64,000 bases of DNA from an uncultured Alphaproteobacteria bacterium. Its GTDB lineage: Bacteria > Pseudomonadota > Alphaproteobacteria > Rs-D84. Numbering within the stretch: the stretch's first letter is position 1; every line of letters begins with the position of its first letter. Under the pieces are notes generated by a model. That model made no database searches. It saw only the letters and a program-made list of their open reading frames with translations, and was not told where the DNA came from. A program made the translations under genes and the position numbers. Of this stretch, positions 16,553 to 64,000 are shown piece after piece. The stretch is taken from NCBI GenBank assembly GCA_946623825.1, contig CAMORN010000002.1, positions 20,237 through 84,236 on the forward strand, in the 5' to 3' direction.

Positions 16553-16554
16553 AA

Positions 16555-18969
16555 ATGGAATATTTATTTAATTATTTTGCAGGAAATTCAAATTCAATGA
16601 CATTGACATTGGTTATTATTGCGATGTCTGTGTTGTTGGTATTTATTGTTTTGTTGGCTTATATACCGACTTTAACAAAAAGAATTTTACCTGAATTTGG
16701 TTATGCTAGATATTCTGATTATTTACCATTCAAGGGTGTTTATAAAGATGATATTATATCTTTAAATGATGGTTCTTTGGCACGCGCATATAAAATAAAT
16801 GGTGTTCAAACCAGTATAATGGACGATGAAAACCGTGAAAAATTATTAGATTTACGTGCACAATTATTCAATCAAATTCAAGATCCGTCTGTTCATATTC
16901 GTTTTTATACAATTCGTGATAAAGTTGATGAAAAAACAAATTATGAATTTCATCAAAAAACACTGCAAAAAATTTATGATAAATGGAATAACCAAGGATT
17001 ACAGATATTTAATAATTCTTATTATGTTGTTATATCTGTAAATGGTGCGAATAATTATGATAAATTATTGCATTATTCTAATTTTATAGAATCTGTATTA
17101 TCTGTATATAAACCAGTATTATTAAAACACAACAGTTTTGATAACATAGCAACATTATTTGGTCGTATATTATCACCAATAACAAAACCTGTTATTAAAA
17201 AATGTGATAATGATATTTCAGAACTTGTTGCTGTTGATAATGTTTATTTTGGTAAAAATGGAATCATAGAATATTCAAGTGGTGATAAATCTTATTTTGC
17301 ATCTTTGATTTCATTTAAATCAGCACCTGATTTTATGGATGAAGAATTTTTTAATTCTGTATCAACAATACAATGTGAAATGATTTGTATGAACGCATTT
17401 CATGTTTTAAAAGCAAGTGATATTGATTCTATTATAAGACAACATAAATCAACAATCACAGACGGCAGCGAAGATTCCACCATTGAACAAATAGAACAGG
17501 CACAATCTTCTATGGATGAAAATATAACTGGTGCACAAACATTGGTTGATTATTATCCATTATTTATATTATTTGGTTATAATAAAGATGAACTTGAAAA
17601 AAATGTTTCAGAATTCAAGAAAATAGCTGCATCTTTTGGTGTTGCGCCAGTTGTTGAAAATTTTGCAACCAAGGCTTCTTTCTTTTCTCAGATACCTGGT
17701 TTTGATATATTCCCACGCAGTTTCAAGATGTTGTCAAAAACCGCTGCGGTCAGTATACCTTTGTCATCAATGCCACATGGGGTCGCAAACAGTGACTGGG
17801 GTAATGGTCCGTTAGTTATATTCCCAACTGCTCAGGGAACACCATATCAATTTCAATTTCATGTTTCAGATAAACCGGCTGCTGTGGGACATACATTAAC
17901 AATTGGTCCAACTGGTGGTGGTAAAACAACATTGTTCTCGTTTCTTATTGCTCAATCTTTGAGACACCAAAAGTTAAAAGCTTTCTTCTTTGACAGAAAC
18001 AAGGGTGCAGAAATATTTACATTGGCTGTTGATGGTAAATATATAACCATGAATGGTAAAGAAAAAGATGCAAAACAAGATGTATTTTTAACACATTTAA
18101 ATCCATTAAAAATGCCGGATACTGCGGCAAATCGCGCATTTTTAAGACGTTGGTTTGCAATGATTACTGGTCAAAGTGATGTTGTTTCAAGTGATGAAAT
18201 TGCGCGTGCTGTATCTGTGAATTTTGATTATTTGAAAGACGAAGACAGATTATTGAAAAATCTGTATGAAAGTTGTTTTTCAAGTGAAGGTACAATGCGT
18301 GGTGAATTAAAGAAATGGGTTGATCCATTACAATATGGTGATATTTTCAATGAAACCGAAGATACACTTGATTTAAACGCCCGTTTAACAACATTTGATT
18401 TTACAGATATTTTGCAAGATGAAGTTTTAGCACCAGCAGTTATATCTTATATCTTACACAGAATAAATAATACAACTGTATCTGGTGGAAATCCTTCTTT
18501 GATTATGATTGACGAAACCGCACCTATGCTTGAAAACAAAATGTTCCGTGATAATTTCATAGCGGGCCTGCAAGAAGGTCGTAAAAATCGTCAAGCATAC
18601 ATGGTTGCGTTCCAACGCGCGAATGTTCTTGATAAACTTGGTATTGGTGATGTTGTTCGTGGTCAGGCACAAACTGTGTTATTTTTCCGTAATCCTGCGG
18701 CTGATTTAAGTGATTATGAAAAATGGAATTTAAATCCACTTGAAATGGCTTTTATTCAGGGTAAAGCATATCCAAATTTAAAACGCGCAGTATTATTATC
18801 ACGTCCAGTAAACGGGGAATCTGTAATTTTAAATACCGAATTGGGTGGTTTGGGTAATATGTTGCGTTTGTTTGAATCGGGTCGTTCTTCTGTTTTATTG
18901 GCTGAAGAATTATACAGAAATTATGGAAATAATTTTGTTGAAGAATATCTGAAAAAACAAACAATGTAA
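16555..18969 (+). CDS. virB4: Type IV secretion system ATPase VirB4
   Basis: 804 aa with N-terminal TM region, Walker A GPTGGGKTT, and a CagE/TrbE/VirB4 family C-terminal ATPase domain. Confidence 0.9.
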   Translation: MEYLFNYFAGNSNSMTLTLVIIAMSVLLVFIVLLAYIPTLTKRILPEFGYARYSDYLPFKGVYKDDIISLNDGSLARAYKINGVQTSIMDDENREKLLDLRAQLFNQIQDPSVHIRFYTIRDKVDEKTNYEFHQKTLQKIYDKWNNQGLQIFNNSYYVVISVNGANNYDKLLHYSNFIESVLSVYKPVLLKHNSFDNIATLFGRILSPITKPVIKKCDNDISELVAVDNVYFGKNGIIEYSSGDKSYFASLISFKSAPDFMDEEFFNSVSTIQCEMICMNAFHVLKASDIDSIIRQHKSTITDGSEDSTIEQIEQAQSSMDENITGAQTLVDYYPLFILFGYNKDELEKNVSEFKKIAASFGVAPVVENFATKASFFSQIPGFDIFPRSFKMLSKTAAVSIPLSSMPHGVANSDWGNGPLVIFPTAQGTPYQFQFHVSDKPAAVGHTLTIGPTGGGKTTLFSFLIAQSLRHQKLKAFFFDRNKGAEIFTLAVDGKYITMNGKEKDAKQDVFLTHLNPLKMPDTAANRAFLRRWFAMITGQSDVVSSDEIARAVSVNFDYLKDEDRLLKNLYESCFSSEGTMRGELKKWVDPLQYGDIFNETEDTLDLNARLTTFDFTDILQDEVLAPAVISYILHRINNTTVSGGNPSLIMIDETAPMLENKMFRDNFIAGLQEGRKNRQAYMVAFQRANVLDKLGIGDVVRGQAQTVLFFRNPAADLSDYEKWNLNPLEMAFIQGKAYPNLKRAVLLSRPVNGESVILNTELGGLGNMLRLFESGRSSVLLAEELYRNYGNNFVEEYLKKQTM

Positions 18970-18972
18970 TAT

Positions 18973-27110: not shown

Positions 27111-27172
27111 AATACAATTTTGCCTTTATTTTATTTTATCTTTTGTGTTATAATACTTACACAGAAGAGAGA

Positions 27173-28423
27173 ATGATTAAGCAAATTATAACAGTTCATC
27201 ATAAAAAATTTGCGACAGGTCTATTTTGGCAACCTGTCAGTGTTGGTAATACAGCCTTTAATTATGCGAGACAACTGGCAAAAAATACAAAATATACACT
27301 GTTCACAGAATATAAATCTATGGTTGGTTTAACCAATGCAAGAAACGGTGCACATTTTTCGATGCCAAGTGCAGCTGCAGAAATTGTTGAACATTTTGCA
27401 GATTTAATTTCTTTCTTGGGTGTATTTCAGGCGGATAATGGTTTTTATTTGGTTGCGGTGCGTAATGGAATTATTATTCGTGATATTTTGATAGAATCTG
27501 AAACAAATGCCCGTGAAATTTATACTGAATTGTCAAATATACCTGATTGGGGTGCTTTGTTTGCGCCTGCGTCTTGGGGAATGCCTCGTTCTCAGGAAAA
27601 ATTTTTATCAGACATTATTCAAAATAACAATGTTGCGAGATTACGCAATATCAGTATCGTAAAATCTTTATTACCATCTATCTTTTTCATTGCGATTTTC
27701 GTGGTGGCATTCGTTTCGTTTTTATATTCACCAATGGGTAAAAGTATTATGCCACGCAAACGGGTAAATATAGATCCTGAATTAGCAGCAGAATACAAAC
27801 GCCAAATTGAATTAAAAAACAAAGAATTAGATGAACAATTCAATATTGTTAAGAAAGAAGTTGAACCATTAAATCGTCCATACGAACATTTACCAGATGT
27901 CATGGAACGCGCAAATTTGTGCTACAAGGCGATTGCTTTTGTTATGCAACCAGTTTCTGGTTGGAATCAGACATATACAAAATGTGATGAAAAATATGTA
28001 ACTGCTACATTTAAACGCGATTTTGGAACATTAAATGATTTTTATGATATTGGTTCTGAATTATTCCCAGGCGCGGTTGTTCAACAATTGTCTGAAAACG
28101 AAATATTGGTTCGTGTTATGTTGCCTGAATTAAAAACAGTTTCTTCTTTAGATGAACGCGATCAGGTCAGTGCTATGCGCGACATTACAACCAATTTCCA
28201 ACAAATAAACACTAAATTGCACATAAATGGTGTTTCGGATACTGTATCAAATGGGGAAGAAACCGAAAAATTAAATGTTATAGAGGTTTCTGCATCATCA
28301 AAAATGATACCGACTGAATTTATGAATGTGTTTAATGATTTTGGTGGTGTTTATATGACATCTGTAAATTGGAACGCAAACACAAGAACATGGAATTACG
28401 AAGTAATTGTTTATACAAAATAA
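27173..28423 (+). CDS. Bitopic inner-membrane protein; candidate type IVb pilus accessory protein (R64 PilO / BfpC / GspL-like)
   Basis: About 190-aa cytoplasmic N-domain, a single TM (LLPSIFFIAIFVVAFVSFLY), and an approximately 200-aa periplasmic C-domain. Size (416 aa) and position (immediately before a PilP-like protein, the ATPase and the platform) match R64 pilO-pilP-pilQ-pilR. A -10 TATAAT lies at 27149-54 and the RBS GAAGAGAGA precedes ATG 27173. Confidence 0.35.
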   Translation: MIKQIITVHHKKFATGLFWQPVSVGNTAFNYARQLAKNTKYTLFTEYKSMVGLTNARNGAHFSMPSAAAEIVEHFADLISFLGVFQADNGFYLVAVRNGIIIRDILIESETNAREIYTELSNIPDWGALFAPASWGMPRSQEKFLSDIIQNNNVARLRNISIVKSLLPSIFFIAIFVVAFVSFLYSPMGKSIMPRKRVNIDPELAAEYKRQIELKNKELDEQFNIVKKEVEPLNRPYEHLPDVMERANLCYKAIAFVMQPVSGWNQTYTKCDEKYVTATFKRDFGTLNDFYDIGSELFPGAVVQQLSENEILVRVMLPELKTVSSLDERDQVSAMRDITTNFQQINTKLHINGVSDTVSNGEETEKLNVIEVSASSKMIPTEFMNVFNDFGGVYMTSVNWNANTRTWNYEVIVYTK

Positions 28424-28439
28424 AAAAAGGAAAAATAAG

Positions 28440-29087
28440 ATGATTAATAAAATTCAGAAAATATTGTTATCAGTGTTGATTATATTTGGTTTTTCTGTCC
28501 CATCTTTTTCAGAAGAATTTATCGAAGAAGAAATTATCACAGAAGAAAATGCAGACCAAATATCTGCTGATGCGTTAAATAATTATGAAGTGAACGGTTC
28601 TTTGTTTGAAAGAATAACAACATTGGAACAAGAAAAAGTTGTTATGCAACTTGAAAAAGAAAGGGCACAGCTTGATTTAGAATTGGAAAGATTAAATGCT
28701 GAAAAAATAAAAATTCAAATGGAATTGGATACTTTGTCTGGGCGTGCAGAACAACAACAGCAAGAATTGGAAGCAACCAAGGCACAATTGGAAGCGCAAA
28801 CTGAAAAATTAAAACGTCAACTGGAAGAAGTAGAAGAAGAAAAACCTGTTGAAAGACCAACAAAAAAAGTTGTAGAAGGTGGTTTATCAAATCAATATAA
28901 ATTGGTTAATGTTATTGGTATTGGTAATCAATTACAGGCAACACTTGAAGAAGTTGCGACTGGTCAAAATAAACGCGTAAGTGTTGGTAAACAAATTGGT
29001 GGTTATATTGTAAAAAGCATTTCTTTAAATGACGGTATTATTTTTGAAAAAGACGGTCAGGAAGAAAACATAAATATTGGAAAATAA
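28440..29087 (+). CDS. PilP/GspC-like periplasmic protein (N-terminal anchor, coiled coil, C-terminal beta domain)
   Basis: N-terminal hydrophobic helix, acidic stretch, and a long coiled coil (LEKERAQLDLELERLNAEKIKIQMELD...). The C-terminal approximately 70 aa (YKLVNVIGIGNQLQATLEEVATGQNKRVSVGKQIGGYIVKSISLNDGIIFEKDG) resembles PilP/GspC homology-region domains. Confidence 0.35.
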   Translation: MINKIQKILLSVLIIFGFSVPSFSEEFIEEEIITEENADQISADALNNYEVNGSLFERITTLEQEKVVMQLEKERAQLDLELERLNAEKIKIQMELDTLSGRAEQQQQELEATKAQLEAQTEKLKRQLEEVEEEKPVERPTKKVVEGGLSNQYKLVNVIGIGNQLQATLEEVATGQNKRVSVGKQIGGYIVKSISLNDGIIFEKDGQEENINIGK

Positions 29088-29088
29088 T

Positions 29089-30717
29089 ATGCCAAACAAA
29101 GATGATAAATTTTTAACAGATGTTTCATCAAAACCGTCAATTCCGGCGGGACTTGAAAACGCAAACAGTAAAGATATTATTGATTATTTGTTTTCTAATC
29201 AAAACAGATTATTAACATCTTCCGTGGGTGAATTGGCTTTGCCGAAAGACACACAAAGTTTGATTGCATATTTTTCAAGTGGCGAAATTATTATTTCCAG
29301 AACACACAGATACGATGGTCGTGTTATTGCGTTTATAGATTTATTGCGTCAGAAAAATAAATTGATGAAACAACCTTTTTATTCTGATTTAGGTTTAATA
29401 TCAAACATTTATAAATATAACGACGAAAGGGTTGGCGGAATACATGCGCGTCCTGACTATGATAACCAGATGCAGAAAGATTTTGTTGATATTATTGCAC
29501 GTGCTGCATCGCAAAAGGTTTCTGATATTCACATAGAGGTCGCAGACCAAACAACAATTTATTTCCGTATAGATGGCAGTATGCAACCGGTTCTTGAATA
29601 CAATTCACAATGGGGTGAATCTTTCGTTCGTGCGGCGTTTGCATCGGCTGATATTTCTAATTCGAGTTATGCACAAAACGAATATCAAACCGCCCAGAAA
29701 GATGGACGAACACCATTGCGTGGAACAAAAGATTTATATTTGCCAAATGGTGTGTTGGGTATTCGTATGCAATTTAATCCGATTGCGTTTGGTTCGCAAT
29801 ATGTGGTTATGCGTTTGTTATATGATAACCCAAGCGAAGGTATAAAAACCGAACAAGAATTTAATGAATATGAACAAAAATTATTGATGCGTTTGCGTTC
29901 TGCACCAACTGGATTGGTTGTTGTTGCGGGTCCTACATCTTCTGGTAAATCTACGACATTGGTTCGCAATATGGCGTTGATGTTGAAAGAAAAAAGATAT
30001 GAAATAAATCTTATTACTGTGGAAGATCCTGCGGAACAAAAGATTTTTGGCGCACATCAAATGCCGGTTGTTAACACAACGAACGAAGAACAACGCGAAG
30101 AAAAATTTACAGAAGCCCTTGCGGCTGCTTTGCGAAGCGACCCTGATACATTAATGGTCGGTGAAATCAGAACATTATCTGCGGCGCAATTGACGGTCAA
30201 GGGCGCATTGTCTGGTCATAATGTGTGGACAACATTGCACGCTAATTCTGCGATGGGCGCGTTGACCCGTTTGTTGGATATGGGCGTGGAAGCTTTCAAA
30301 TTAAAAGATGAAACAATGATGCGTGGTTTGGTTTCTATGCGTTTATTTAAAAAATTGTGTCCACATTGTCGTGAAAGATTACTGGATAAAAGAAATCATC
30401 CGTCATATAACCGTGTTCGTGAAACATTGGGTGATTTAGGGTTGGCGCAAACATATGTTCGTGGTGTTGGTTGCGAATATTGTAATGGCACCGGAACAAT
30501 TGGTCGTGTCAAGGCGGGTGAAATTATTATCACAAACAGTGAATTTTTATCGCTTGCGCTGGCGGGGGAAACAGAAAGCGCAGTGAAATATTGGCTTGAA
30601 AAAATGAACGGACGAACACTGAAAGAATCTGCAATTGAATTGATGTTGCGTGGTATTATCGGTGTTGATGAATTGGAAGACAGGGTTGGTTTATTAGACA
30701 GACCATGGGTATATTAA
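29089..30717 (+). CDS. GspE/PilB/TcpT-family secretion ATPase
   Basis: Walker A VVAGPTSSGKSTTL, Asp box/Walker B, His box (MVGEIRTLSAAQL...GHNVWTTLHANSA), and a C-terminal tetracysteine motif CPHC...CEYCNGTG as in GspE/PilB. ATG 29089 directly follows the upstream stop. Confidence 0.85.
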   Translation: MPNKDDKFLTDVSSKPSIPAGLENANSKDIIDYLFSNQNRLLTSSVGELALPKDTQSLIAYFSSGEIIISRTHRYDGRVIAFIDLLRQKNKLMKQPFYSDLGLISNIYKYNDERVGGIHARPDYDNQMQKDFVDIIARAASQKVSDIHIEVADQTTIYFRIDGSMQPVLEYNSQWGESFVRAAFASADISNSSYAQNEYQTAQKDGRTPLRGTKDLYLPNGVLGIRMQFNPIAFGSQYVVMRLLYDNPSEGIKTEQEFNEYEQKLLMRLRSAPTGLVVVAGPTSSGKSTTLVRNMALMLKEKRYEINLITVEDPAEQKIFGAHQMPVVNTTNEEQREEKFTEALAAALRSDPDTLMVGEIRTLSAAQLTVKGALSGHNVWTTLHANSAMGALTRLLDMGVEAFKLKDETMMRGLVSMRLFKKLCPHCRERLLDKRNHPSYNRVRETLGDLGLAQTYVRGVGCEYCNGTGTIGRVKAGEIIITNSEFLSLALAGETESAVKYWLEKMNGRTLKESAIELMLRGIIGVDELEDRVGLLDRPWVY

Positions 30718-30720
30718 GAT

Positions 30721-31791
30721 ATGAATAAATTAGATTTGCTGTATGCAAAACTGGTTTTTAGAACAAATACTGATAAACGTATGGCGATTTCAAGAAAAAT
30801 CGCATCTCTGCTTCGTAATAATTTTACATTGATGGACGCGTTGCACCGTATTGAAATGATAGAATCATTTGACGGACGAAAACCAAATGAACCATTTGCA
30901 ATCGCAATGCGTGAAATTCAACAGAACCTTGAAAAAGGTATGACTTTCAGCGAGGCCACACGTGGTTGGGTTCCAAATGAAGAAACATTGCTTTTAATGT
31001 CTGGTAATGTGTCCAGTTTATTGGTTTCGCTTGAAAATGTATCGCGTGTTGTTGGTGGTATCAGAAGAATTAAACGCGCAATGTGGTCTGCGTTGGCATA
31101 TCCATTATTTTTGTTTTTATTGACGATTGGTATAATTATTATGGTTGGAATATATCTTGTTCCACCATTGGCACAAGCGGCGGGCAGCGATATTATATGG
31201 CGTGGCACGGCGGCGTCCCTGATATGGGTATCAGATTTTGCAAATAAATATTGGTATGTTTTTGCAGCCGGATTGGTTGGGGTGATATCTGTTGTATGGT
31301 TATCTTTGCCAATATGGACGGGAAAATTAAGAACCATGTTTGATAAATTACCACCATGGAATATTTATAAATTACAAACATCTGTTGGTTGGTTAATGTC
31401 ATTGGCTGCAATGGTGTCTGCGGGTGTGTCTGTGCCGGACGCGTTGCGTTTATTGATGGATTCATCAAACAGATATTTATCAAATATATTGGAAGAAACC
31501 CTGCATTATATTGCAAACGGTGAAAATTTGGGTTCTGCGCTGGCGTTGACTGGGAAAGATTTCCCAAATGGTGAAATCGTTGGCGATTTGATGATATATT
31601 CAGATATGAATGATTTCGCACAAAATCTGGACGATATCGCAAATGATTATATGGAAGAATCAGTTCGCCGTATGGAATCTATATCAAGTGTTTTAAACAG
31701 CATTGGTATTATATTAGTATCAATTATTATTGGGTGGATAGTTTTGGGCACTTTCCAGATGCAGGAACAAATCACCGCCGTTTTGATGTAA
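30721..31791 (+). CDS. GspF/PilC/TcpE-family inner-membrane platform protein
   Basis: 356-aa polytopic protein directly after the ATPase, with T2SS-F-like helical cytoplasmic segments alternating with TM helices. Size matches the type IVb platform proteins TcpE, BfpE and R64 PilR (about 340-365 aa). Confidence 0.55.
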   Translation: MNKLDLLYAKLVFRTNTDKRMAISRKIASLLRNNFTLMDALHRIEMIESFDGRKPNEPFAIAMREIQQNLEKGMTFSEATRGWVPNEETLLLMSGNVSSLLVSLENVSRVVGGIRRIKRAMWSALAYPLFLFLLTIGIIIMVGIYLVPPLAQAAGSDIIWRGTAASLIWVSDFANKYWYVFAAGLVGVISVVWLSLPIWTGKLRTMFDKLPPWNIYKLQTSVGWLMSLAAMVSAGVSVPDALRLLMDSSNRYLSNILEETLHYIANGENLGSALALTGKDFPNGEIVGDLMIYSDMNDFAQNLDDIANDYMEESVRRMESISSVLNSIGIILVSIIIGWIVLGTFQMQEQITAVLM

Positions 31792-32044: not shown

Positions 32045-33268
32045 ATGTCACAAAAAATCTTTTTAACATCCGCGCTTGCGATGGGCGTGATAGCACCGGC
32101 ATTTGCGGAACCATCACATACGGGAACATTCCCAGCCGACGGCTATATGGAAGAAGATTACACATATACCAACGCGGCAACTGCAGACAACATGGACAGC
32201 GTATATGAAGGAACCGTAGATGCAGTCGCGGAATACGAAGATGTATTATATCAAATCGTCGCGGGACAATATTTACCGGCGGGCGCAGAATCACCAATAG
32301 ATTGTGATCAATCTGGTTATTTCTGTGCTGGTGTGCAAAATGGTGTTTATTATGACGCAAATAATAATCAGGGACTTACATCATGTTCGGATGCGACAAA
32401 CGGCGCATATACATTATCCGCCGGAACTGGTGACAGCGTAAATTCATGTTATCGTACATGTACAAATTCGGATGTTGCACATTCAACGGGAACAATGAAC
32501 GGTGGCTATTATTATGGTAATAACAACCAATGTGGCGCAACATCTTGCGTTAACGGATGGCATTTGAAAACCAGCATGAGCGGCGGCGAATTAGTAACCG
32601 CAATTGGTACAGGCGCCGGTGAAAACAGTGCTCATATTAAGGCAGACGGTACATTTGGTGAACAAAACTTTGATGGTCAGGGAGAAAAGGGGCAATCATA
32701 TTATGGCTTAACCGACAATAACACATGGGCGGTAGATTACGGCACCAACGGAATGTTGGTTGGTCAGGCTCGTTGTTCTACACAAGCAGGTGATAATAAT
32801 GGTGCTACATGGACAAACCCAACAATAACATCAAGTTTAACAGATGAAACCGGTCAAGCGGGGGCACAATATTGTTATTGTAATGTGACGGGATATAAAG
32901 GTACGGACGGCACCATGCAGAGCTTGTCCGCCCCTTGGGTGTTCTACGAAGGCTTCAGCGGTGGCGAGTCGGCTTGCGCATACGGCTGCGCTAACGACTG
33001 TGCGAGCATCTTGCGTATCACGGACTCGTCCTTCCTCGCGTTCCGTGCTGCGTTGTTGGGATCCGTTCAATCAAGTCCAGCGATGTGTGAGGCAAATGTT
33101 ATCAACATTAATTGGTCGAATGCAGATGCAGCTGATGTTATTGCAAACAATGCGGGTACCGCCACATACGGAAGTGATGTTCGTACCCCTGTTAAGGCAC
33201 AGACCATTAAGGGTAAAACATTCCGTGGTTGGCGTTTCAGCAAACCAGAACAAACCAATTTGCCATAA
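32045..33268 (+). CDS. Secreted Cys/Gly/Thr/Asn-rich protein of unknown function, compositionally foreign
   Basis: Sec signal peptide MSQKIFLTSALAMGVIAPAFA-EP; 407 aa with more than 20 Cys and almost no Lys/Ile, unlike the rest of the proteome. Its DNA is 45-60% GC against a 30-33% background, with GC-rich third codon positions. RBS AAGGGAG. It lies just downstream of the secretion ATPase and platform genes. Confidence 0.5.
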   Translation: MSQKIFLTSALAMGVIAPAFAEPSHTGTFPADGYMEEDYTYTNAATADNMDSVYEGTVDAVAEYEDVLYQIVAGQYLPAGAESPIDCDQSGYFCAGVQNGVYYDANNNQGLTSCSDATNGAYTLSAGTGDSVNSCYRTCTNSDVAHSTGTMNGGYYYGNNNQCGATSCVNGWHLKTSMSGGELVTAIGTGAGENSAHIKADGTFGEQNFDGQGEKGQSYYGLTDNNTWAVDYGTNGMLVGQARCSTQAGDNNGATWTNPTITSSLTDETGQAGAQYCYCNVTGYKGTDGTMQSLSAPWVFYEGFSGGESACAYGCANDCASILRITDSSFLAFRAALLGSVQSSPAMCEANVININWSNADAADVIANNAGTATYGSDVRTPVKAQTIKGKTFRGWRFSKPEQTNLP

Positions 33269-44228: not shown

Positions 44229-44378
44229 ATGTAAAAATCCTTTCTTTCGTTGACTCCGTTTGTGCTTCTTTTCTCTCCCCTTGCGATATATTATACACTT
44301 TTTTAGGTCTTTATTCAAGTATGTTGAAATACATAATATAGGTTTATATATAATTAAAAATCTGGTATAATACGCGGT

Positions 44379-46229
44379 ATGAACAAAGATTTAGATAATT
44401 ATTTATATTATTCCGATGTTATGACGAAAATTTCAGATTCTGTTGATGATTCTGAAAATGACATAATAGACATTTTAAATGTTTATTACAAAGAATTGCG
44501 TACATTAGCATTTATGAATTATTGTAATAATGATGTTTTGCCAGATGCTGTAAATACATATCTGAAAATTCTTTTTAAATTGCCGAAACAGGCTGCAATA
44601 GAATCTTTTAATTTTATGTATGATAATTATGAGAAAATCATAACAAAAAAATCTGTAATATTTATTGTTGGAAAATATCCTGAAACAGCGGATTCTGTAT
44701 TTGAAAAAATATATAAATCTTTGAATGAAAAATATTCTGAAAATAAATTGTTGTTTTTATATTTGGTTGTTCAGAACACCAGTGGCGCAAAAAAGAAATT
44801 TTTCTTGAAACAGATTTTTGATTATTTGAATAATGGTTCAAATATTATAAGAATTTCTAAATTATTAAGTTTTCATAATGAAAATAATTTTGTCCTTGAT
44901 ATAGATGATTCTGTTATCGATGTTTTGATAGAAATGGCTGATATTGCATTAATGTCGCCAATGCTGAATACAGAAATTGTTGAATCTATAATAAATCTGA
45001 TGGCAAGAATATATAAAAAGCCAGAACACAAAAACAGCGCGGAAAAAATTCTTGAAAATATAAAAACCAGAACAGATATAATAAATTCACATCAAAAAAG
45101 AACTATTGCCAGAATTTTTAATGATACAGAAAATTTGCGCAGTGATGTTGAAATTGCAAAACGGGTGGAAAAAACCGCAATAAATGAATATGGATACCAG
45201 ATTGTAGAACAAATTCCGGTTGATGAAGTATGTTGTTTAATATTGGGTGGAAATGGTGCAGATAATTCAAAAAAAGCAAACGGATATATGAAAGAAATTG
45301 AATATTTGCTGAATACGAATGGTTTAAATACGGCTGTTAATGTTTATGGTGTTGCGTATGATTTTGGTGAATCTGAAGATGTGAAATATTCATTTAACGA
45401 TGGGCGTGCGCGTATAAGAATGGCTTTCGAACACGGTCGTCGCAGATTGCATTCTTTGGTGTCGCACAAACTTGAAAGATATGTTTCTGAAAAACAATTT
45501 AATAATGATTCAGAAGAACAGAAAGACCCAAGATATATTAAAAAAATATTTGATATTGCGATTTTACCACGAATATCCCAAGACGGTAAAAAGATAGATG
45601 TTGCCTTGGCAAAAAGGTATATTCGAAATTTAAATATTTTTGTGCATTGTCATGGTGGATATACTTTCATAAAATTGGAAGAAATGATGCAGGCAAAAAT
45701 GGCTGAATTGGGCTATACAAAGCAAGAAATGAAAGATATTCAAAAACAATTATTGTGTATTGGTTTTGCACCATATTGTCCGTTGGGAATATCAAAATCT
45801 ACATTTATCAGTTTTTGTTCTGCGATGGATTTTAACAGCAAATATTTTAATTTGTTCGAATTATTGGGGCGTCCTTTGTTCAAAGAAGGTATCGCATGGT
45901 TCCCAGATAATTTAGGAAATGTTTTTGTTGTTTCTGAAATTGGTCAGAATAGAAATATAGAAGAACATATGGCTTATATTGGTACTGCGGGTGGAATTGG
46001 TATGTCGGACGCGGGTAAAATAATGGTTCAAATGGAAAAGAACGCAATTGTAAACGGAATTAAAAATTCATTAGACAATGGAACGGTTCCAAATGTGAAA
46101 CAATTGGTTGCGGGTGATGATATTGAAATGAGACACGAATTTGAAACAGCGGTAATAAATGGTCGTGAAAAATATAAAGCCATGTTGGAACGCATAAAAA
46201 AAGAGAGAGAAAATGGCAGAAAGATTTAA
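44379..46229 (+). CDS. Hypothetical protein (616 aa)
   Basis: Long ORF with host-typical codon usage, divergent from the 1245-aa gene. No family recognised. Confidence 0.4.
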   Translation: MNKDLDNYLYYSDVMTKISDSVDDSENDIIDILNVYYKELRTLAFMNYCNNDVLPDAVNTYLKILFKLPKQAAIESFNFMYDNYEKIITKKSVIFIVGKYPETADSVFEKIYKSLNEKYSENKLLFLYLVVQNTSGAKKKFFLKQIFDYLNNGSNIIRISKLLSFHNENNFVLDIDDSVIDVLIEMADIALMSPMLNTEIVESIINLMARIYKKPEHKNSAEKILENIKTRTDIINSHQKRTIARIFNDTENLRSDVEIAKRVEKTAINEYGYQIVEQIPVDEVCCLILGGNGADNSKKANGYMKEIEYLLNTNGLNTAVNVYGVAYDFGESEDVKYSFNDGRARIRMAFEHGRRRLHSLVSHKLERYVSEKQFNNDSEEQKDPRYIKKIFDIAILPRISQDGKKIDVALAKRYIRNLNIFVHCHGGYTFIKLEEMMQAKMAELGYTKQEMKDIQKQLLCIGFAPYCPLGISKSTFISFCSAMDFNSKYFNLFELLGRPLFKEGIAWFPDNLGNVFVVSEIGQNRNIEEHMAYIGTAGGIGMSDAGKIMVQMEKNAIVNGIKNSLDNGTVPNVKQLVAGDDIEMRHEFETAVINGREKYKAMLERIKKERENGRKI

Positions 46230-58180: not shown

Positions 58181-58585
58181 ATGGAACAGAAAACTTTTAT
58201 TTTAAATAATGTTGAAGAAACAAGAAACTTTGCTCGTGAATTTGCAAAAACATTGCATGCACCAATAACTGTCGCTTTGCATGGTGATTTGGGTATGGGA
58301 AAAAGTGAAATTGCGCGCACAATTATAAAAACTTTGTGTGGCGAAGACACGGTTGTGCCAAGTCCTACATTTACATTGGTTCAAAATTATGATGGTATTT
58401 CACATTTTGATTTATACAGAATAGGGGACGAATCTGAATTGGAAGAAATTGGTCTGCAATATGCCATAGATAATGATATAACATTAATAGAATGGCCAGA
58501 TATCGCAAAAGATAAATTGCCATCGAATACCATACACATTTATATAACACAAAATGGTGATGGGCGTAAATTAGTGCTTCAATAA
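58181..58585 (+). CDS. tsaE: tRNA t6A37 threonylcarbamoyladenosine biosynthesis protein TsaE
   Basis: ITVALHGDLGMGKSEIART P-loop typical of TsaE/YjeE; about 134 aa from ATG 58181. The ORF-track start at 58091 overlaps uvrB. Confidence 0.8.
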   Translation: MEQKTFILNNVEETRNFAREFAKTLHAPITVALHGDLGMGKSEIARTIIKTLCGEDTVVPSPTFTLVQNYDGISHFDLYRIGDESELEEIGLQYAIDNDITLIEWPDIAKDKLPSNTIHIYITQNGDGRKLVLQ

Positions 58586-60355
58586 ATTTATGATTGCCAA
58601 TCTGAAATCTGGTGCATTCGCAAGATAAGAACCGGATACTAATAAATTCGCACCAGCATCCCAGCATAATTTTGCAGTATCTGGATTTATTCCACCATCA
58701 ACACTGATTAAATATTTTAAACCGTGTTTTTTTCTGGTGTAATCAAGCGCTTTGATTTTTTCAAGAACACTGTCTTCAAATTGTTGTCCCGCCGCCCCAG
58801 GTTTCACAGCCATAACCATAACTTCGTCAATGAAAGGCAACATATCTTTTATAAATGTTGCAGGAATATCTGGATTTAATGCAATTCCACAACGTTTTCC
58901 TGCTTTTTTTATAATTTTGATTGCGTTTTCTGTCCCCGGTGTTTCTGCAGGAATTATGATTGTATCTGCGCCGGCATTTATTGCGTCAGCTGCAACAATA
59001 GCAGGTGTTTGAACCATCAAATGTGTATGCAGATGCATACCTGTTTTTAATCTGATTTTTTCAAGTTCTTCTATGCTGCCAGCCATTCTGTCTACATATA
59101 AACCATCCATAATATCAACATGAATCATGGAAATGCCGCCAGATGCAAACATTGTATATGTTGATTTTTCATTCATATCAAAACAAAGTGTGCTTGGCAT
59201 GATTGGAACCAATTTATGTTTAGCTTTGATTTTTTTTCTTTTGAATTTTTTGAATATTTTATGAAATATTTCGGTTCTTGCATTTTGTTTTTTTATAAAT
59301 GTTTCGCGTTCTTCTTTGTGAGATTCCCATACATAATTTAATAACGCATTTAATGAAGCCATTTCACCGTGATTTTCAGTTGGTAATCCAAAATGTTTTT
59401 CCAAAAAAGAACCAATGTTTCGAATAGATGCACCACCACCAGAAAATATAATTTTGTTTGGTTTATATCTTTCAATGTATCTGGCAGATTCTTGTTTTAT
59501 CAAATTAATTAATTCAAGTATTTGTGGTTGAAAAACATCGTTTATGTCGGATCTTTGTATAGAAGCGAATCTGCCTGTTTCAGCCGCCGGACGGAATCTG
59601 TCATTTTCATTTGGGACGGTATCTGATATAGATATTTTTAAATCATCAGCATCTTTTTCAGATATATTTAATTTATCAGCCAATGCCATTGTAATATCGT
59701 TTTGTCCAAAAGGAATTTTTTTGATAAATAATGGTCCTTTGAAAAACCAGAGTGATACAGTTGTGTATTCTGCACCAAAATCTATAAACAAAGTTTTACC
59801 GTTTTTTGGCATATAAAGTTGACCTTGTAAAAAACATGGGTCAAAAAATCCGATTGGTTGTATGTGTGCGTTATGTAAAATATCAGTTATTTCTATTGTT
59901 TTATCTTCTGGGTAAGAAATAACACTGAAAACGCTTTTTAATTCTGTATCAACCTGATTTATTGGACTGGTTTTTATATCTGATTTAGTAGGCGTTCTGA
60001 ATAATACAGGTATAATATGCATTTTATAAAAACCGTCTTTGTTCGGGATTTTATCAATTTGCTTTTTTAAATCATATTCTGTTATTTGATGCGGAACACC
60101 AAATTGTTTTATTTGGGTTGATAATTGAAAATCAAGTTCACCAAAATTACCGGTTATATACGCGTTGTTAAAATGTGTCCCCAATTTTTGTTCAAGTTCG
60201 TCTATCACACTTTTTAAGGCAAAATTTGTGTTTTTATTTTTAACAAAATGAGCATAAGATTGTTCCATTTTGCCATTTATAACACGCGTTGCCAAACCGC
60301 ATACACCGTATGAACCAATATCTAGACATAAAATATACGATTTAGAAAAATTCAT
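58571..60355 (-). CDS. ftsA: FtsA (actin-like cell-division protein) fused in frame to ribulose-phosphate 3-epimerase
   Basis: Residues 1-360 follow the FtsA layout (LCLDIGSYGVCGL; LFIDFGAEYTTVSLWF..IPFGQNDITMALADKLNISEKDADDLK; IIFSGGGASIRNIGSFLEKHFGLPT). A basic amphipathic tail IFHKIFKKFKRKKIKAKHK follows. Residues 386-594 are a complete Rpe (MPSTLCFDMN...HVDIMDGLYV...MVMAVKPGAAGQQF...SVDGGIN) beginning at an internal ATG (59198-59200) with no intervening stop. Coupled to ftsQ upstream. Confidence 0.7.
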   Translation of the reverse strand: MNFSKSYILCLDIGSYGVCGLATRVINGKMEQSYAHFVKNKNTNFALKSVIDELEQKLGTHFNNAYITGNFGELDFQLSTQIKQFGVPHQITEYDLKKQIDKIPNKDGFYKMHIIPVLFRTPTKSDIKTSPINQVDTELKSVFSVISYPEDKTIEITDILHNAHIQPIGFFDPCFLQGQLYMPKNGKTLFIDFGAEYTTVSLWFFKGPLFIKKIPFGQNDITMALADKLNISEKDADDLKISISDTVPNENDRFRPAAETGRFASIQRSDINDVFQPQILELINLIKQESARYIERYKPNKIIFSGGGASIRNIGSFLEKHFGLPTENHGEMASLNALLNYVWESHKEERETFIKKQNARTEIFHKIFKKFKRKKIKAKHKLVPIMPSTLCFDMNEKSTYTMFASGGISMIHVDIMDGLYVDRMAGSIEELEKIRLKTGMHLHTHLMVQTPAIVAADAINAGADTIIIPAETPGTENAIKIIKKAGKRCGIALNPDIPATFIKDMLPFIDEVMVMAVKPGAAGQQFEDSVLEKIKALDYTRKKHGLKYLISVDGGINPDTAKLCWDAGANLLVSGSYLANAPDFRLAIINLLKH

Positions 60356-61101: not shown

Positions 61102-61476
61102 TTATTTTGCTCGCAACAAATAACCGCGTTTTAACATACACTTACGATAATATCCGGTTGTTTTAGAGGCACTGTTAGGTGGTACAGATAACAGAGCCCT
61201 TTGTCCGACATCTTTGTATTCATTAGATTGAAATGTGACCCACAAACCGTCCCAATCAGGCATCTGGGCGCTTTGATTCGGGGATAACAGCTTTGCAATT
61301 CGGGAACGCGGAATATAATTGTTTGTTTTTATTCCAAGGCATGATTTGTGGTCGCGAACAAATTGTTCGGTTGTAACCGCATCATTTTCCCAATTTAATA
61401 TTGTGGCGTCATCTATAGACCCACGATTTGCAGATGCACACGCTGTTAAACCAATCAATAAAAATAAATATTTCAT
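61102..61476 (-). CDS. Small lipoprotein (hypothetical)
   Basis: MKYLFLLIGLTAC lipobox signal from ATG 61476. The ORF-track N-extension is unlikely. Confidence 0.4.
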   Translation of the reverse strand: MKYLFLLIGLTACASANRGSIDDATILNWENDAVTTEQFVRDHKSCLGIKTNNYIPRSRIAKLLSPNQSAQMPDWDGLWVTFQSNEYKDVGQRALLSVPPNSASKTTGYYRKCMLKRGYLLRAK

Positions 61477-61559
61477 TCTCATTTCTTTCTTATTATAATT
61501 TATTTGCCTTTTTGTGGCAATAGTTTTTATAATGTAAAAAACATAGTGGGGAAAAAGAG

Positions 61560-61883
61560 ATGGCAATATCAATTCAAAATTATATAAAATTGGCTAATTT
61601 TTACAACGAAATGTCGCGCATTTTGTCGGCTGTGTGTGTTGAAAAAGGCGGGATTGCGCTGGAAAATTATGTTGGTCGTTTCTTTGCTGCAGATGTTCTT
61701 GAATATATTGTGGAATATGGAAACAGATTAAAAAAGTCTGGGGCGCAATTGACACCAGATATAACAAATGCGATGGATTTGTTTGAAAAAAAATTTGAAA
61801 GTGTGAAACATCTTGTTACCCCAACACAAAAACCTATATACGAAATGACGCTAGAAGAATTTGAAAAAATTATGAATATCTAG
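61560..61883 (+). CDS. Hypothetical protein (107 aa)
   Basis: ORF with plausible RBS GGGGAAAAAGAG. No family recognised. Confidence 0.3.
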   Translation: MAISIQNYIKLANFYNEMSRILSAVCVEKGGIALENYVGRFFAADVLEYIVEYGNRLKKSGAQLTPDITNAMDLFEKKFESVKHLVTPTQKPIYEMTLEEFEKIMNI

Positions 61884-61919: not shown

Positions 61920-63251
61920 ATGGCACAAAAACAAGCAAAAAACATGATATTTTTTATCGTAGGTTTGTGTTCTGTATTTGTTTACGGATGTGCAAACAAA
62001 CGACAAGATATGACTGTGTTTGATACGGTAAATGTTGTCCAAAATTCTGTTATAAATGAAAAATCTGTGCCTATTTTTCCTAAAAAGGCAGCTTTGACAA
62101 CAGATACAGCACAACATTTTGCGCTGGATTTGCCAAAGAGATGCACTGTAGATTGGGATAATCAAAGTGTGGTTTCTGTATTGCCAGAAGAAAAAATAGA
62201 AATTGTTCGTATTAACAACGGTGATCCATTACCAGATTTGAAGGTTTCTGATTTTGATTTCAAGAAAATGTATGTCAAAGATGTTCTTGAAAAATTATTG
62301 GCGGATACAGATGTTTCTGTATTGGAAGACCAAAAGACATTTGAAAAAATCACTGGTTCTATTAAAACAAGTTCATTGGCTGATGCGGTTGATTTAATTA
62401 CAAAATTGGGACGCGTTTATTATTCTTATGATAAAGAATTCGGTGAATTACACATAACTGGTCATGGTAAATTTATGATAAAAATGCCAAAAGATGAAAC
62501 TATGATAATGGCGATATTAGATGCTATGCGTGGTGCAGATGTGCTGAATTTATTGGTTAACTGGCAAGACAAAACAGTTGTTTTCGAAGGTAATTATCAA
62601 ACACAAAGAGAGGTTGCAAAAATCATTGCAGATGTCAGTGCTAAAAAATATGTAATCGCATGGGATATGGATGTGTATCGTGTATATCCAAAAATAGACA
62701 ATCCGATTGTTTGGATGAATATGTTACCTGCGTTTGGTGAAAAAAATATTCATATGTCTATTCCTGGGGTTGTAGGACGCGCGTTGGTGGTAAGTCCTGA
62801 AGTCAATACAAAAACATTGCAACAATTCATTTCTCAACAGGCAAAAATGGTATTGATATCTCAGGGTACTTTTGCGTTGCCTAATGGTTGGCAATCAAGA
62901 TTTGATATTGGTCAATGCAGCAAAGAAGATCGTCTCGAAACAGATTTGATTATTGGTGCAACTGGTACATATGGTAATTATGGCGGATATAATAAAATAG
63001 ATGCCAAGATTGTATTAAGTACCAGCAACGGCGAATTAACATCTTTCAAAATAATGTCAGATGTTGGTGATAATTATGTGTTTGTTGGTATTCCGACGCA
63101 CGCGTTTGTAACAACACCGGAAACTTTGATAAGTCCTTTTGCAGAATTGGTGGTGTTTGTAAGTCCGCGCTTAATATCAATTGTTGATGCAAATAAAACT
63201 GATTCTAAACAATTGGTTGGTGATAATTTGCGTGATTTCTTGAACCAATAA
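61920..63251 (+). CDS. Secretin-like outer-membrane lipoprotein (candidate type IVb pilus / T2SS secretin, PilN/TcpC/BfpB-like)
   Basis: Lipoprotein signal (FIVGLCSVFVYGC). N-terminal region resembling secretin N-domains (VKDVLEKLLADTDVSVL...IMAILDAMRGADVLNLLVNWQDKTVVFEG). C-terminus ...ELVVFVSPRLISIVD resembles the conserved secretin C-terminal strand (e.g. TELLVFITPRII). Confidence 0.35.
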   Translation: MAQKQAKNMIFFIVGLCSVFVYGCANKRQDMTVFDTVNVVQNSVINEKSVPIFPKKAALTTDTAQHFALDLPKRCTVDWDNQSVVSVLPEEKIEIVRINNGDPLPDLKVSDFDFKKMYVKDVLEKLLADTDVSVLEDQKTFEKITGSIKTSSLADAVDLITKLGRVYYSYDKEFGELHITGHGKFMIKMPKDETMIMAILDAMRGADVLNLLVNWQDKTVVFEGNYQTQREVAKIIADVSAKKYVIAWDMDVYRVYPKIDNPIVWMNMLPAFGEKNIHMSIPGVVGRALVVSPEVNTKTLQQFISQQAKMVLISQGTFALPNGWQSRFDIGQCSKEDRLETDLIIGATGTYGNYGGYNKIDAKIVLSTSNGELTSFKIMSDVGDNYVFVGIPTHAFVTTPETLISPFAELVVFVSPRLISIVDANKTDSKQLVGDNLRDFLNQ

Positions 63252-63262
63252 AGGAATAAAAT

Positions 63263-64000
63263 ATGTTGTTTTCTGATTTAGAAAAGAAAGTTGCTTTCAG
63301 ATATATGTTCGCCAAGAAACGCGGTTTTGGTTCTGTGGTTTCTTGGGTTTCTTTGATTGGTATTATGTTGGGTGTTGCAACTTTGATTGTTGTGATGTCT
63401 GTTATGGGTGGTTTTCATGAAACTTTGTTGTCCAGAATTATTGGTATGAATGGTCATGTTGTTGTTTATCACAATGGTGGAACAATTTCTGATTATGATT
63501 TCTTGATTGATAAAATGCGTCAAAATAAAGTTGTTGCAAAATATACAACTTCTATTGTTCCAATTGCAGAAGGTCAAATTATGGCGTCCAGCAATGGTAA
63601 TAATTCAGGCGCCATGGTTCGTGGTATTCGTATGCCTGATTTGATTGCAAAAACAAATACTGGAACACGCATTTATGGCAAGGCATTAGATAAAGTCAAA
63701 GATGATGAATTGGTTATTGGTTCCGCATTATCACGTGCATTGCGTGTTACATCTGGGGATAAAGTTTCTTTGATTTCTGCAAATGGTGGAACAGCTACAC
63801 CATTTGGAACGATGCCTCGGATAATGTCTTATCCGGTTGTTTCGTCTTTCTTTATGGGAATGTATGAATATGATTCTGGTTATATATTTATGTCATTAGA
63901 ATCTGCACAAAAATATTTAAATATTCAAGATTCTGTCACACACATAGATTTGTTCTTAACAGATGCAGAACGCAGTGGTGAAGTGGTCAGTGCATTGGAC
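63263..64000 (+). CDS. lolC: Lipoprotein-releasing system permease LolC/LolE (FtsX-like), N-terminal part; 3' end lies outside the window
   Basis: VAFRYMFAKKRGFGSVVSWVSLIGIMLGVATLIVVMSVMGGFHETLLSRIIG matches the LolC/E N-terminus (AlRYl...fis.is.is.iGi.LGVaaLIvVlSVMnGF). Confidence 0.7.
   Translation, partial: MLFSDLEKKVAFRYMFAKKRGFGSVVSWVSLIGIMLGVATLIVVMSVMGGFHETLLSRIIGMNGHVVVYHNGGTISDYDFLIDKMRQNKVVAKYTTSIVPIAEGQIMASSNGNNSGAMVRGIRMPDLIAKTNTGTRIYGKALDKVKDDELVIGSALSRALRVTSGDKVSLISANGGTATPFGTMPRIMSYPVVSSFFMGMYEYDSGYIFMSLESAQKYLNIQDSVTHIDLFLTDAERSGEVVSALD

Follow-up and report, generated by a model that had tools for sequence, protein, structure and literature searches.

Secretins form gated channels of 12-17 subunits in the outer membrane, and they are the gates used by type II and type III secretion systems, type IV pili and filamentous phages; we know of no diderm type IV pilus or type II secretion-like machine that does without one. 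In other systems the PilP-type proteins dock on the N0 domain of the secretin. N0 domains also occur in the outer-membrane complexes of type IV secretion systems, where Legionella DotD and Xanthomonas VirB7 are small outer-membrane lipoproteins with an N0 domain alone, encoded among the type IV secretion genes. Among the lipoprotein secretins, R64 PilN (TIGR02520) is encoded immediately upstream of pilO2, and BfpB and TcpC are encoded within pilus operons with a periplasmic BfpG/TcpQ-type partner just upstream. BfpB, from the bundle-forming pilus of EPEC (PDB 9u5s; TcpC is related), has the domain order LG-N0-N3-secretin, without an S domain and without a pilotin (PMC12531336).

Here we describe a divergent lipoprotein, designated S, encoded in a 64 kb stretch of DNA (the window) from a Candidatus Enterousia (Rs-D84) genome of less than 1 Mb (roughly 0.9-1 Mb). 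The initial annotation had called S a secretin-like lipoprotein and had suggested that it may be the missing channel of an ATPase/platform module at 27-32 kb, encoded apart from it as is common in fragmented endosymbiont genomes; the label "endosymbiont" is inexact for this gut-associated bacterium. In the window S has ftsQ and lolC as neighbours, and the locus is organised as follows:

61102..61482, minus strand: small lipoprotein gene, divergent from A and S, 126 aa from an internal Met (listed ORF 156 aa)
61560..61883, plus strand: A, 107-aa helical protein without signal peptide, upstream partner of S (locus comparison, A-family HMM)
61920..63251, plus strand: S, 443-aa lipoprotein of the secretin superfamily, stop codon included (ORF, hhalign, AF2, Foldseek)
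63263..64000, plus strand: 5' part of lolC/E, which runs off the window (Pfam MacB_PCD)

The S gene starts with ATG, has an AGGA 8-11 nt upstream of this codon, and in the ORF listing of the window its translation ends ...FAELVVFVSPRLISIVDANKTD... The N-terminus, MAQKQAKNMIFFIVGLCSVFVYGC|ANK, reads as a signal peptide with a V-Y-G-C lipobox and Cys24 as the lipidated residue, followed at position +2 by Ala rather than Asp. This cysteine aligns with the lipobox cysteine of most family members, and the lipobox is retained in at least 71 of 80 orthologs. We found 1228 homologs of S at E<=1e-3, with relatives in at least 282 species-representative genomes, and among the database entries seen, all named ones matching the family are labelled "hypothetical". 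The dN/dS of S was 0.02-0.16 among orthologs, and judged by these values S is under strong purifying selection. Given this ratio, the conserved lipobox and the relatives in 282 species genomes, S is a real and important gene, and a chance ORF is ruled out.

Standard domain searches do not recognise S. The Pfam Secretin model PF00263 gave no match to S at E<=10 and matched none of 28 family members at E<=1, TIGR02520 of NCBIfam (cut-off 287.65 bits) likewise left S unmatched even at E<=10, and PDB chains were matched neither by S (HMMER) nor by the family profile; the HMM checks proposed in the initial annotation (PF00263, Secretin_N and TIGR02520) thus all fail on S. The secretin call itself was borne out by three other routes. 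Firstly, the ten weakest phmmer matches of S that were tested were all positive for PF00263, at 44-74 bits. Secondly, hhalign aligned the S family with true secretins at 99.95% probability (E 2e-37) over 380 columns, nearly the full length, in an alignment that takes in the C-terminal ELVxxxxPRxI motif. Thirdly, an AF2 model of S (pLDDT 76.7) has the secretin fold, with N0, a ring-building N domain and barrel strands, and the top 24 Foldseek matches of this model in the PDB were all secretins (probability 0.91-1.00), the best being BfpB of the type IVb pilus (E 7.5e-10). The global TM-scores of these matches are low (0.13-0.23), as is expected because the monomer is extended and multidomain. 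Together these results confirm that S belongs to the secretin family, as a small and highly divergent member that escapes standard domain searches.

The fold also bears on a role that the position of S might otherwise suggest. The gene lies directly upstream of lolC/E, as first described: lolC/E begins 11 nt past the S stop codon, at 63263, no terminator-like site was found between the two, and they probably form one operon. In orthologous loci a complete lolC/E (MacB_PCD+FtsX) is followed by the ABC ATPase gene lolD, and the adjacency of S to these genes holds down to relatives of 40% identity, with lspA nearby. As Alphaproteobacteria to our knowledge lack a recognisable LolB, S could on these grounds be a non-channel, periplasm-facing lipoprotein of the LolB/LptE kind or similar, with a role in lipoprotein or LPS sorting. 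We consider this highly improbable: the fold and profile evidence for a secretin is unambiguous, neither the Foldseek matches of S nor its Pfam and NCBIfam searches included a LolA/LolB- or LptE-type protein, and in most family members S is followed by a gene for a membrane protein (B, see below) and not by lolC. A LolB/LptE-like fold, the outcome that the initial annotation had named as refuting its call, was therefore looked for and not seen, and such a non-channel identity is effectively refuted by hhalign and Foldseek.

In the model, S consists of a lipidated linker, N0, N3 and a shortened secretin domain, without an S domain and without N1/N2:

61920..61991, plus strand: signal peptide and lipobox, residues 1-24, with the lipidated Cys24 (sequence)
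61992..62216, plus strand: linker between lipid anchor and N0, residues 25-99 (pLDDT, secondary structure)
62217..62462, plus strand: N0-like domain, about residues 100-181 (secondary structure, Foldseek, hhalign)
62463..62645, plus strand: N3-like ring-building domain, beta-alpha-beta-beta-alpha, about residues 182-242 (model, hhalign; boundaries approximate)
62646..63194, plus strand: shortened secretin domain, about residues 243-425, ending ELVVFVSPRLI (hhalign, model)

The linker is disordered at residues 26-61 and then forms short helices and two short strands; it carries an invariant R74-C75 in the family alignment and may be likened, by position and secondary structure only, to the "LG" region of BfpB. 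The N0-like domain gave Foldseek matches to the N-terminal domains of EscC, XcpQ and GspD, and STN was matched weakly in four of 28 family members. The secretin domain, which carries an invariant C333, predicted to form a disulfide with C75, and has long strands at residues 244-257, 308-321, 344-392 and 409-423 in the model, is about 60 residues shorter than the canonical domain, owing to three gaps of about 20, 22 and 17 residues in the hhalign alignment. S thus shares with BfpB, its best structural match, the N-terminal lipid, the long linker, N0, N3 and the secretin domain as well as the lack of N1/N2 and of the S domain, and since both are N-terminally lipidated, neither should need a pilotin. 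S was first given a size "comparable" to TcpC, BfpB and R64 PilN; with three deletions in the barrel and gate region, it is smaller than lipoprotein secretins of type IVb pili typically are (a comparison with the type as a whole rather than with the full length of BfpB). S also differs from BfpB and TcpC in lying outside any pilus operon and in being preceded by A, which is helical and has no signal peptide, instead of by a BfpG/TcpQ-type protein. DotD and VirB7 resemble S as N0-domain lipoproteins, but do not have the N3 domain and secretin barrel which S combines with its N0 domain.

The canonical sequences closest to S are MshL-like lipoprotein secretins of uncultured bacteria (e.g. P0209, for which TIGR02519 is the best model, at a score below its cut-off), with phmmer E-values of 1e-8 to 1e-3, an hhalign E-value of 2e-37 and 88 bits with the S-family HMM. 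These are lipoproteins as well (LxGC) and have the same layout of N domains as S, but they are 467-744 aa long and pass the Pfam Secretin model, which the S family fails. They are encoded in pilus-type clusters consisting of secretin, small protein, ATPase and platform genes, whereas the neighbours of S are different.

The machine which such a secretin might serve was sought in the window itself, where the module at 27-32 kb is as described in the initial annotation and consists of genes identified by Pfam and NCBIfam:

27143..31791, plus strand: candidate partner machine, four genes (Pfam, NCBIfam)
27143-28423, plus strand: PilO2-like, PAP_PilO (Pfam)
28407-29087, plus strand: PilP-like (TIGR03021 pilP_fam, E 2.4e-5, below cut-off)
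29077-30717, plus strand: PilB/GspE-family ATPase, T2SSE (Pfam)
30721-31791, plus strand: GspF/PilC-family platform protein, T2SSF (Pfam)

A cluster on a Bosea plasmid is the closest relative of the PilO2, ATPase and platform genes of the window, with 26-36% identity between the module and this R64-type cluster. The Bosea cluster has the canonical R64-type order of TcpQ-like protein, secretin, PilO2, PilP, ATPase and platform, whereas the operon in the window comprises PilO2, PilP-like, ATPase and platform genes and has no secretin gene upstream of pilO2, where there is instead a gene for a 103-aa lipoprotein, preceded by lpxC. S, which resembles R64 PilN in being a lipoprotein secretin and has R64-type PilO2, PilP, PilQ and PilR in its window, is located 33.5 kb downstream of the pilO2-like gene and so is not adjacent to it as PilN is. 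HMMs of true secretins and of the S family detected no second secretin-like ORF in the 64 kb window, a search for the class-III signal-peptide motif revealed no prepilin-like ORF there, and the stretches at 5-16 kb and 33-48 kb yielded no further components of type IV secretion systems or type IV pili.

We tentatively favour, at slightly less than an even chance, the reading that S is the self-piloting lipoprotein secretin of the R64-like type IVb pilus-type machine at 27-32 kb. Following Sec export and lipidation at Cys24, S would be sorted to the outer membrane by LolCDE and oligomerise there into a putative ring-shaped channel. The most likely user of this channel would be the machine at 27-32 kb, with the PilP-like protein docking through its periplasmic domain on the N0 ring of S and a fibre or substrate passing through the barrel, the gate region of which appears reduced relative to canonical secretins; A would be an obligate but uncharacterised partner. 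As the barrel is without about 60 residues, the channel function of S is only assumed. The suggestion that S is the missing channel of this module has evidence on both sides: the operon has no secretin gene, it encodes a PilP-like protein, the 64 kb contains no other secretin and the canonical secretins nearest to S belong to pilus-type clusters, but S was never found beside PilO, PilP, ATPase or platform genes in about 145 related loci, so that synteny lends the link no support. The loci compared comprised 80 from Enterousia (the best 80, examined to +/-10 kb around S), 51 from metagenomes and 10 others; the best 80 were taken from a narrower family alignment and represent the Enterousia clade only. 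The S-family HMM furthermore scored 88 bits on an MshL-like secretin vs 0.7 bits on the Bosea PilN-type secretin, and at the sequence level the MshL-like secretins are nearer to the S family than is the PilN type which accompanies R64-like PilO2/Q/R, so S is not simply a displaced cognate PilN. As the window represents 64 kb of a genome of about 0.9-1 Mb, a canonical secretin could lie outside it. A link between S and the module is nevertheless plausible.

Comparison of the S loci also revealed a gene context of a different kind, as more distant relatives of S are encoded within VirB gene clusters while the S gene of the window is not. Where the loci of relatives reach far enough, VirB6/TrbL paralogs (2-5 copies) are followed by an HTH gene, X, A, S and B (L004, L005, L093, L099, L112, L140, L141, L145 and L157, with a variant in L136). 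In L009 the genes lie between TrbI/VirB10 with a VirB11-size ATPase and a group of four VirB6 paralogs, and in L005 a VirD4 gene is located 5 kb downstream. Across these loci the identity of S is only about 28-58%, and hence the linkage of S with VirB6 is old. B is a bitopic membrane protein with a conserved periplasmic domain of about 95 aa containing two cysteines; it has no sequence match in the PDB, and neither A, B nor X matches a known family. The window itself contains one type IV secretion gene, 43 kb from S and flanked by housekeeping genes:

16555..18969, plus strand: VirB4-family ATPase (Pfam CagE_TrbE_VirB)

This was the only type IV secretion gene among the window ORFs scanned with Pfam (those outside 1-5.7 kb and 46-58 kb).

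S might on this evidence be the outer-membrane ring or channel part of a Rickettsiales-like (VirB/rvh-type) type IV secretion system, working with B, A and X beside or in place of VirB7/VirB9, in a cluster that was broken up in Enterousia with only A and S still together. The context in the relatives and the N0 domain that S shares with the DotD and VirB7 lipoproteins speak for this reading, but we regard it as rather unlikely. The Foldseek matches of S were to secretins only, with VirB9, CagX and DotH folds absent from the top 50, and S was not matched by the VirB9/CagX-type Pfam families. The window and the 80 Enterousia loci (+/-10 kb) do not contain B, X or the HTH gene, although S is strongly conserved in them. 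In reduced genomes synteny can outlast functional coupling, of which the adjacency of S and lolC may be an example. The VirB adjacency moreover also fits a pilus function, since conjugative elements such as R64 combine type IVb pilus genes with neighbouring type IV secretion genes. From general knowledge, no type IV secretion system with a secretin barrel is known to us. A limited literature check found no secretins in type IV secretion systems either, and in a survey of eight classes of these systems the term "secretin" is absent (PMC4027160). A more specific proposal is that Rickettsiales-like type IV secretion systems of gut Alphaproteobacteria have S, a lipoprotein derived from secretins and trimmed at the gate, built into their outer-membrane portion, where it would act together with A, B and X. 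We consider this doubtful; if true, S would be an evolutionary bridge between secretin-based and VirB-based envelope machines.

Since the HTH-X-A-S(-B) cassette acts as a unit across the S family, we also considered whether S and A (with X and B in relatives) are a self-contained export or surface-assembly module, exporting for instance the large, repeat-rich and variable X, or whether S is a relic secretin with an envelope role unrelated to either machine. X (199-1317 aa) and A (107-708 aa) are acidic, repetitive and highly variable in length, which fits cargo or surface proteins, and the absence of A, B and X from known families is compatible with such a module. The cassette however includes no ATPase, whereas we know of no secretin that works without an inner-membrane assembly machine and an energy source; X and A have no signal peptides as read from their sequences, and neither the window nor any of the 80 Enterousia loci (examined to 10 kb on either side of S) contains X. 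Such roles for S are accordingly improbable in our view. A phage origin of S was likewise rejected, as IMG/VR contained no relatives of S and the sole match in a phage collection was an unverified fragment of bacterial DNA with the VirB6-HTH-X-A-S-B cluster.

Whichever machine it serves, the S family has gone unseen by Pfam and NCBIfam while being conserved in hundreds of alphaproteobacterial species from gut and rumen, in genomes of about 1 Mb that have kept little dispensable DNA. We found nothing in the literature on pili or secretion systems of Rs-D84/Enterousia, and S restores an outer-membrane element that was missing for judging the pilus or secretion capacity of these reduced bacteria, whose dependence on other cells probably centres on such an apparatus. 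With about 420 mature residues and a shortened gate, S is a naturally minimised secretin that could be used to study the minimal requirements of a barrel, and because it has been linked repeatedly, and over a long time, with VirB6 arrays and three uncharacterised partner families, a link between secretin-type and VirB-type machines is possible and testable.

Finally, we compared the two small genes upstream of S, neither of which has a product matched by Pfam or NCBIfam models, including those of the TcpQ type. A has 730 homologs, and the 107-aa protein is a shortened version of the A proteins in relatives, which are 165-700 aa long (A-family HMM, E 1.4e-7 for the 107-aa protein); its model is a three-helix bundle with generic, non-significant fold matches. 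A is paired with S in 79 of the best 80 loci, all of them from Enterousia, and the divergent small lipoprotein, which is 126 aa long in orthologous loci, is conserved with the A-S pair in the same proportion (79/80).

The gene under study, S, had been described in the initial annotation as encoding a lipoprotein of 443 aa at 61920-63251, directly 5' of lolC/E, and all of this was borne out. The ORF and its neighbours are:

61560-61883: A, an ORF of 107 aa
61920-63251, forward strand: S, an ORF of 443 aa with an ATG start
from 63263, 11 nt past the S stop: lolC/E-like gene, matching Pfam MacB_PCD

The N-terminus of S (MAQKQAKNMIFFIVGLCSVFVYGC-ANK) has a signal peptide with a lipobox at its end, in which Cys24 would be the lipidated residue and Ala occupies +2; the C-terminus carries FAELVVFVSPRLISIVD, and an AGGA is found 5' of the ATG. 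Several findings show that the ORF did not arise by chance: homologs number 1228 at E≤1e-3, 282 species-representative genomes hold relatives, dN/dS against its orthologs is 0.02-0.16, and of 80 orthologs at least 71 keep the lipobox. Matches that carry a name are MAGs of rumen and gut origin, entered as 'Alphaproteobacteria bacterium' or 'Candidatus Enterousia', and a closed chromosome of one relative measures 958,618 bp. Enterousia is part of order Rs-D84, gut bacteria whose genomes are smaller than 1 Mb (PMC12306168).

The HMM searches that had been proposed for S came out negative: Pfam Secretin (PF00263) and Secretin_N were unmatched even at E≤10, as was NCBIfam TIGR02520. Among 28 diverse S-family members, none reached the Pfam Secretin model at E≤1 and just four gave STN matches, weak ones of the N0 type; no PDB chain was matched by sequence with either S or the S-family profile as query. 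Three independent lines nevertheless uphold the secretin assignment of the initial annotation. phmmer, run exhaustively against 1.84 billion cluster representatives, returned only 113 matches. The ten weakest full-length matches tested (E 1e-8 to 1e-3) all proved to be true secretins, scoring 44-74 bits against Pfam Secretin; among NCBIfam models below threshold, MshL fitted them best, followed by PilN and GspD. Profile-profile comparison of the S-family alignment with an alignment of these ten secretins gave a probability of 99.95% (E 2e-37) over 380 columns, from the lipobox through the C-terminal ELVxxxxPRxIR motif. An AlphaFold2 model of S, built from an alignment of 48 sequences (mean pLDDT 76.7, residues about 95-425 mostly >80), had secretins as 24 of its 24 top Foldseek matches in the PDB, led by the EPEC type IVb pilus secretin BfpB (9u5s, E 7.5e-10, probability 1.0) and followed by VcPilQ, InvG, ExeD/GspD, PaPilQ and phage pIV, while its N-terminal part matched N0-N1 crystal structures of EscC, XcpQ and GspD. 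S is thus almost certainly a secretin-superfamily lipoprotein. The LolB/LptE-like fold named at the outset as the alternative did not materialise, as nothing LolB- or LptE-like is among the matches obtained with S, and a lipoprotein without a channel role is very improbable. The fold and superfamily are already known; the S family itself is new to databases, with no Pfam or NCBIfam coverage and all named entries among the search matches labelled 'hypothetical'.

The domain layout of S, with approximate boundaries taken from the model and alignment, is:

residues 1-24: signal peptide and lipobox
residues 25-99: linker with an invariant R74-C75; residues 26-61 are disordered and are followed by short helices plus a pair of short strands
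residues about 100-181: N0 domain
residues about 182-242: single N3-type ring-building domain
residues about 243-425: secretin domain
residues 426-443: short tail (S domain absent)

This layout matches the architecture reported for BfpB, in which an 'LG' linker carrying the lipid is followed by N0, N3 and a secretin domain, without N1/N2, S domain or pilotin (PMC12531336). S is unusually compact and its barrel is trimmed: in the profile alignment with true secretins its barrel region is shortened by deletions at three places, of about 20, 22 and 17 residues, which is probably why the Pfam Secretin model fails on S, and from which we infer that the gate or inner barrel is reduced. Two cysteines are invariant throughout the family, C75 (linker) and C333 (barrel), making a putative disulfide that would staple linker to barrel an attractive suggestion.

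A precedes S in 79 of the 80 best Enterousia-clade loci. It has 730 close homologs (dN/dS 0.10-0.21), lacks a signal peptide, and is modelled as a three-helix bundle with uninformative structural matches. Beside the A-S pair in these loci lies a divergently transcribed small lipoprotein gene, and beyond it ftsQ and an ftsA-rpe fusion gene; PilO, PilP, ATPase, platform and VirB4 homologs were found within ±10 kb in none of the 80. The fusion gene (58571-60355, reverse strand, 594 aa) combines an FtsA-like cell-division protein of the actin fold with a ribulose-phosphate 3-epimerase domain, and is also present in one relative (Pfam FtsA and Ribul_P_3_epim) and in 70/80 Enterousia loci. Orthologous loci have a complete lolC/E and then lolD 3' of S. 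Since the A-S and S-lolC gaps are 36 and 11 nt, a promoter-like site lies 5' of A (61504-61533, although such matches are overall not above chance), and no terminator-like site was found between A, S and lolC, the sequence makes it plausible that S, a lipoprotein secretin, is co-transcribed with the genes of LolCD, which sorts lipoproteins. The S-lolC adjacency is kept down to relatives at 40% identity, as is the order lipoprotein secretin, lolC/E, lolD (window 61920-64000 and L095, a related locus), which may be more than coincidence for a protein expected to depend on Lol sorting, or may be inherited synteny. In L095, lspA (lipoprotein signal peptidase) also lies near S.

Relatives at 21-40% identity share a recurring cassette of an HTH regulator, X, A, S and B. 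X is large and repetitive with a conserved N-terminus, and A is here 165-708 aa long, with a conserved core corresponding to the A of the window. B, found 3' of S in most relatives (loci L003, L004, L005, L009, L093, L096-L157), is a bitopic membrane protein with one transmembrane helix, a variable Pro/Gln- or acid-rich N-terminus and a periplasmic domain of roughly 95 aa with invariant R-C-G...C..Y..N residues; family and PDB sequence searches with B gave no match, and A, B and X are outside any described family. Scanning metagenome contigs with a degenerate motif gave 61 loci, 51 of them with S, which was followed by B in about 38 and by lolC in 9; HTH, X and A lay 5' of S wherever the flank was long enough, and pil genes were found in 0/51. 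B, X and HTH are missing from the window, as they are from the ±10 kb around S in each of the 80 Enterousia loci, and L095 (40% identity; HTH, X, A, S, lolC, lolD) is an intermediate joining the two arrangements. One cassette locus, L157 (MT835708.1, 20.9 kb, 51% GC, human faeces), comes from a phage collection as 'UNVERIFIED: Bacteriophage sp.'; it is a bacterial fragment with four VirB6 paralogs, HTH, X, A, S and B, and no phage genes were recognised with the queries used.

Where sequence reaches, arrays of 2-5 VirB6/TrbL paralogs lie 5' of the cassette (L004, L005, L093, L099, L112, L140, L141, L145, L157). The L009 cassette lies between four VirB6 paralogs and a pair of genes for TrbI/VirB10 and a VirB11-size ATPase, and a VirD4 gene lies 5 kb downstream in L005. 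The ancestral genomic home of the S family is a VirB6-rich type IV secretion cluster, a home that to our knowledge has not been reported for any secretin. This old, repeated association with VirB6 arrays, VirB10 and VirB11 suggests that S is connected to type IV secretion. R64 and other conjugative elements, however, have type IVb pilus genes beside type IV secretion genes, so that VirB adjacency is compatible with a pilus role too. Conversely, S is still strongly selected in Enterousia, where it has lost B, X, HTH and the VirB6 array as neighbours. We consider a type IV secretion-linked role of S unlikely, though a serious candidate.

The initial annotation had proposed S as a possible outer-membrane channel of a pilus-type module, to which the following features belong or lie adjacent:

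26771-27082, forward strand: 103-aa lipoprotein ORF in the canonical secretin position 5' of pilO2, without match in family searches
27143-31791, forward strand: the module, comprising PilO2-like (PAP_PilO), PilP-like (226 aa; TIGR03021 at E 2.4e-5, below cut-off, over nearly the full model), ATPase (PilB/GspE family) and platform (GspF/PilC family) genes
32045-33268, forward strand: 407-aa Cys/Gly-rich ORF with a signal-peptide-like start, directly 3' of the platform gene

The module ORFs overlap or abut, consistent with one operon, and the PilP-like protein has an additional faint IcmG/DotF match. The module's proteins have their closest counterparts in type IVb pilus clusters of the R64 type; a Bosea plasmid cluster (26%, 35% and 36% identity to PilO2, ATPase and platform, E down to 3e-98) has the order TcpQ-family, secretin, PilO2, PilP-like, ATPase, platform, PilT-like and then PilV, whereas in the window the 103-aa lipoprotein, lpxC and lpxK stand 5' of pilO2, so that the operon is without its secretin. 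HMMs of true secretins and of the S family found no second secretin-like ORF in the 64 kb, and no prepilin-like ORF was found in the window.

We tentatively read S as the channel of this module, at slightly less than an even chance. We know of no pilus or type II secretion-like machine of diderms that works without a secretin, PilP-class proteins dock on the secretin N0 domain in other systems, and the module has a PilP-type protein and an empty canonical secretin slot; S has type IVb lipoprotein-secretin architecture, and the clusters holding its nearest canonical relatives encode secretin, small protein, ATPase and platform. Against this, synteny with pil genes gives no support in about 145 loci, the VirB linkage points to type IV secretion, and inspection covered only 64 kb, out of a genome estimated at 0.9-1 Mb. 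S is not simply the displaced cognate secretin, because the S-family HMM gives 88 bits to an MshL-like secretin but fails to recognise the Bosea PilN-type secretin (0.7 bits) that accompanies the closest relatives of the PilO2, ATPase and platform of the window. An independent or other role for S is improbable.

The 407-aa ORF has a local GC of about 42% vs about 32% around it and no Pfam or NCBIfam match, and its product could be a surface protein or be carried as cargo by the pilus-type module. The VirB4-family gene at 16555-18969 (forward strand) stands alone, with housekeeping flanks and no VirB6 array after it; the 98-aa ORF before it and the 204-aa ORF after it (16256-19587, forward strand) match no family. 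The other window ORFs scanned are housekeeping or without Pfam match, the latter including two large ORFs of 1275 aa (40491-44318, reverse strand) and 616 aa (44379-46229, forward strand), notable proteins for a genome of ~1 Mb.
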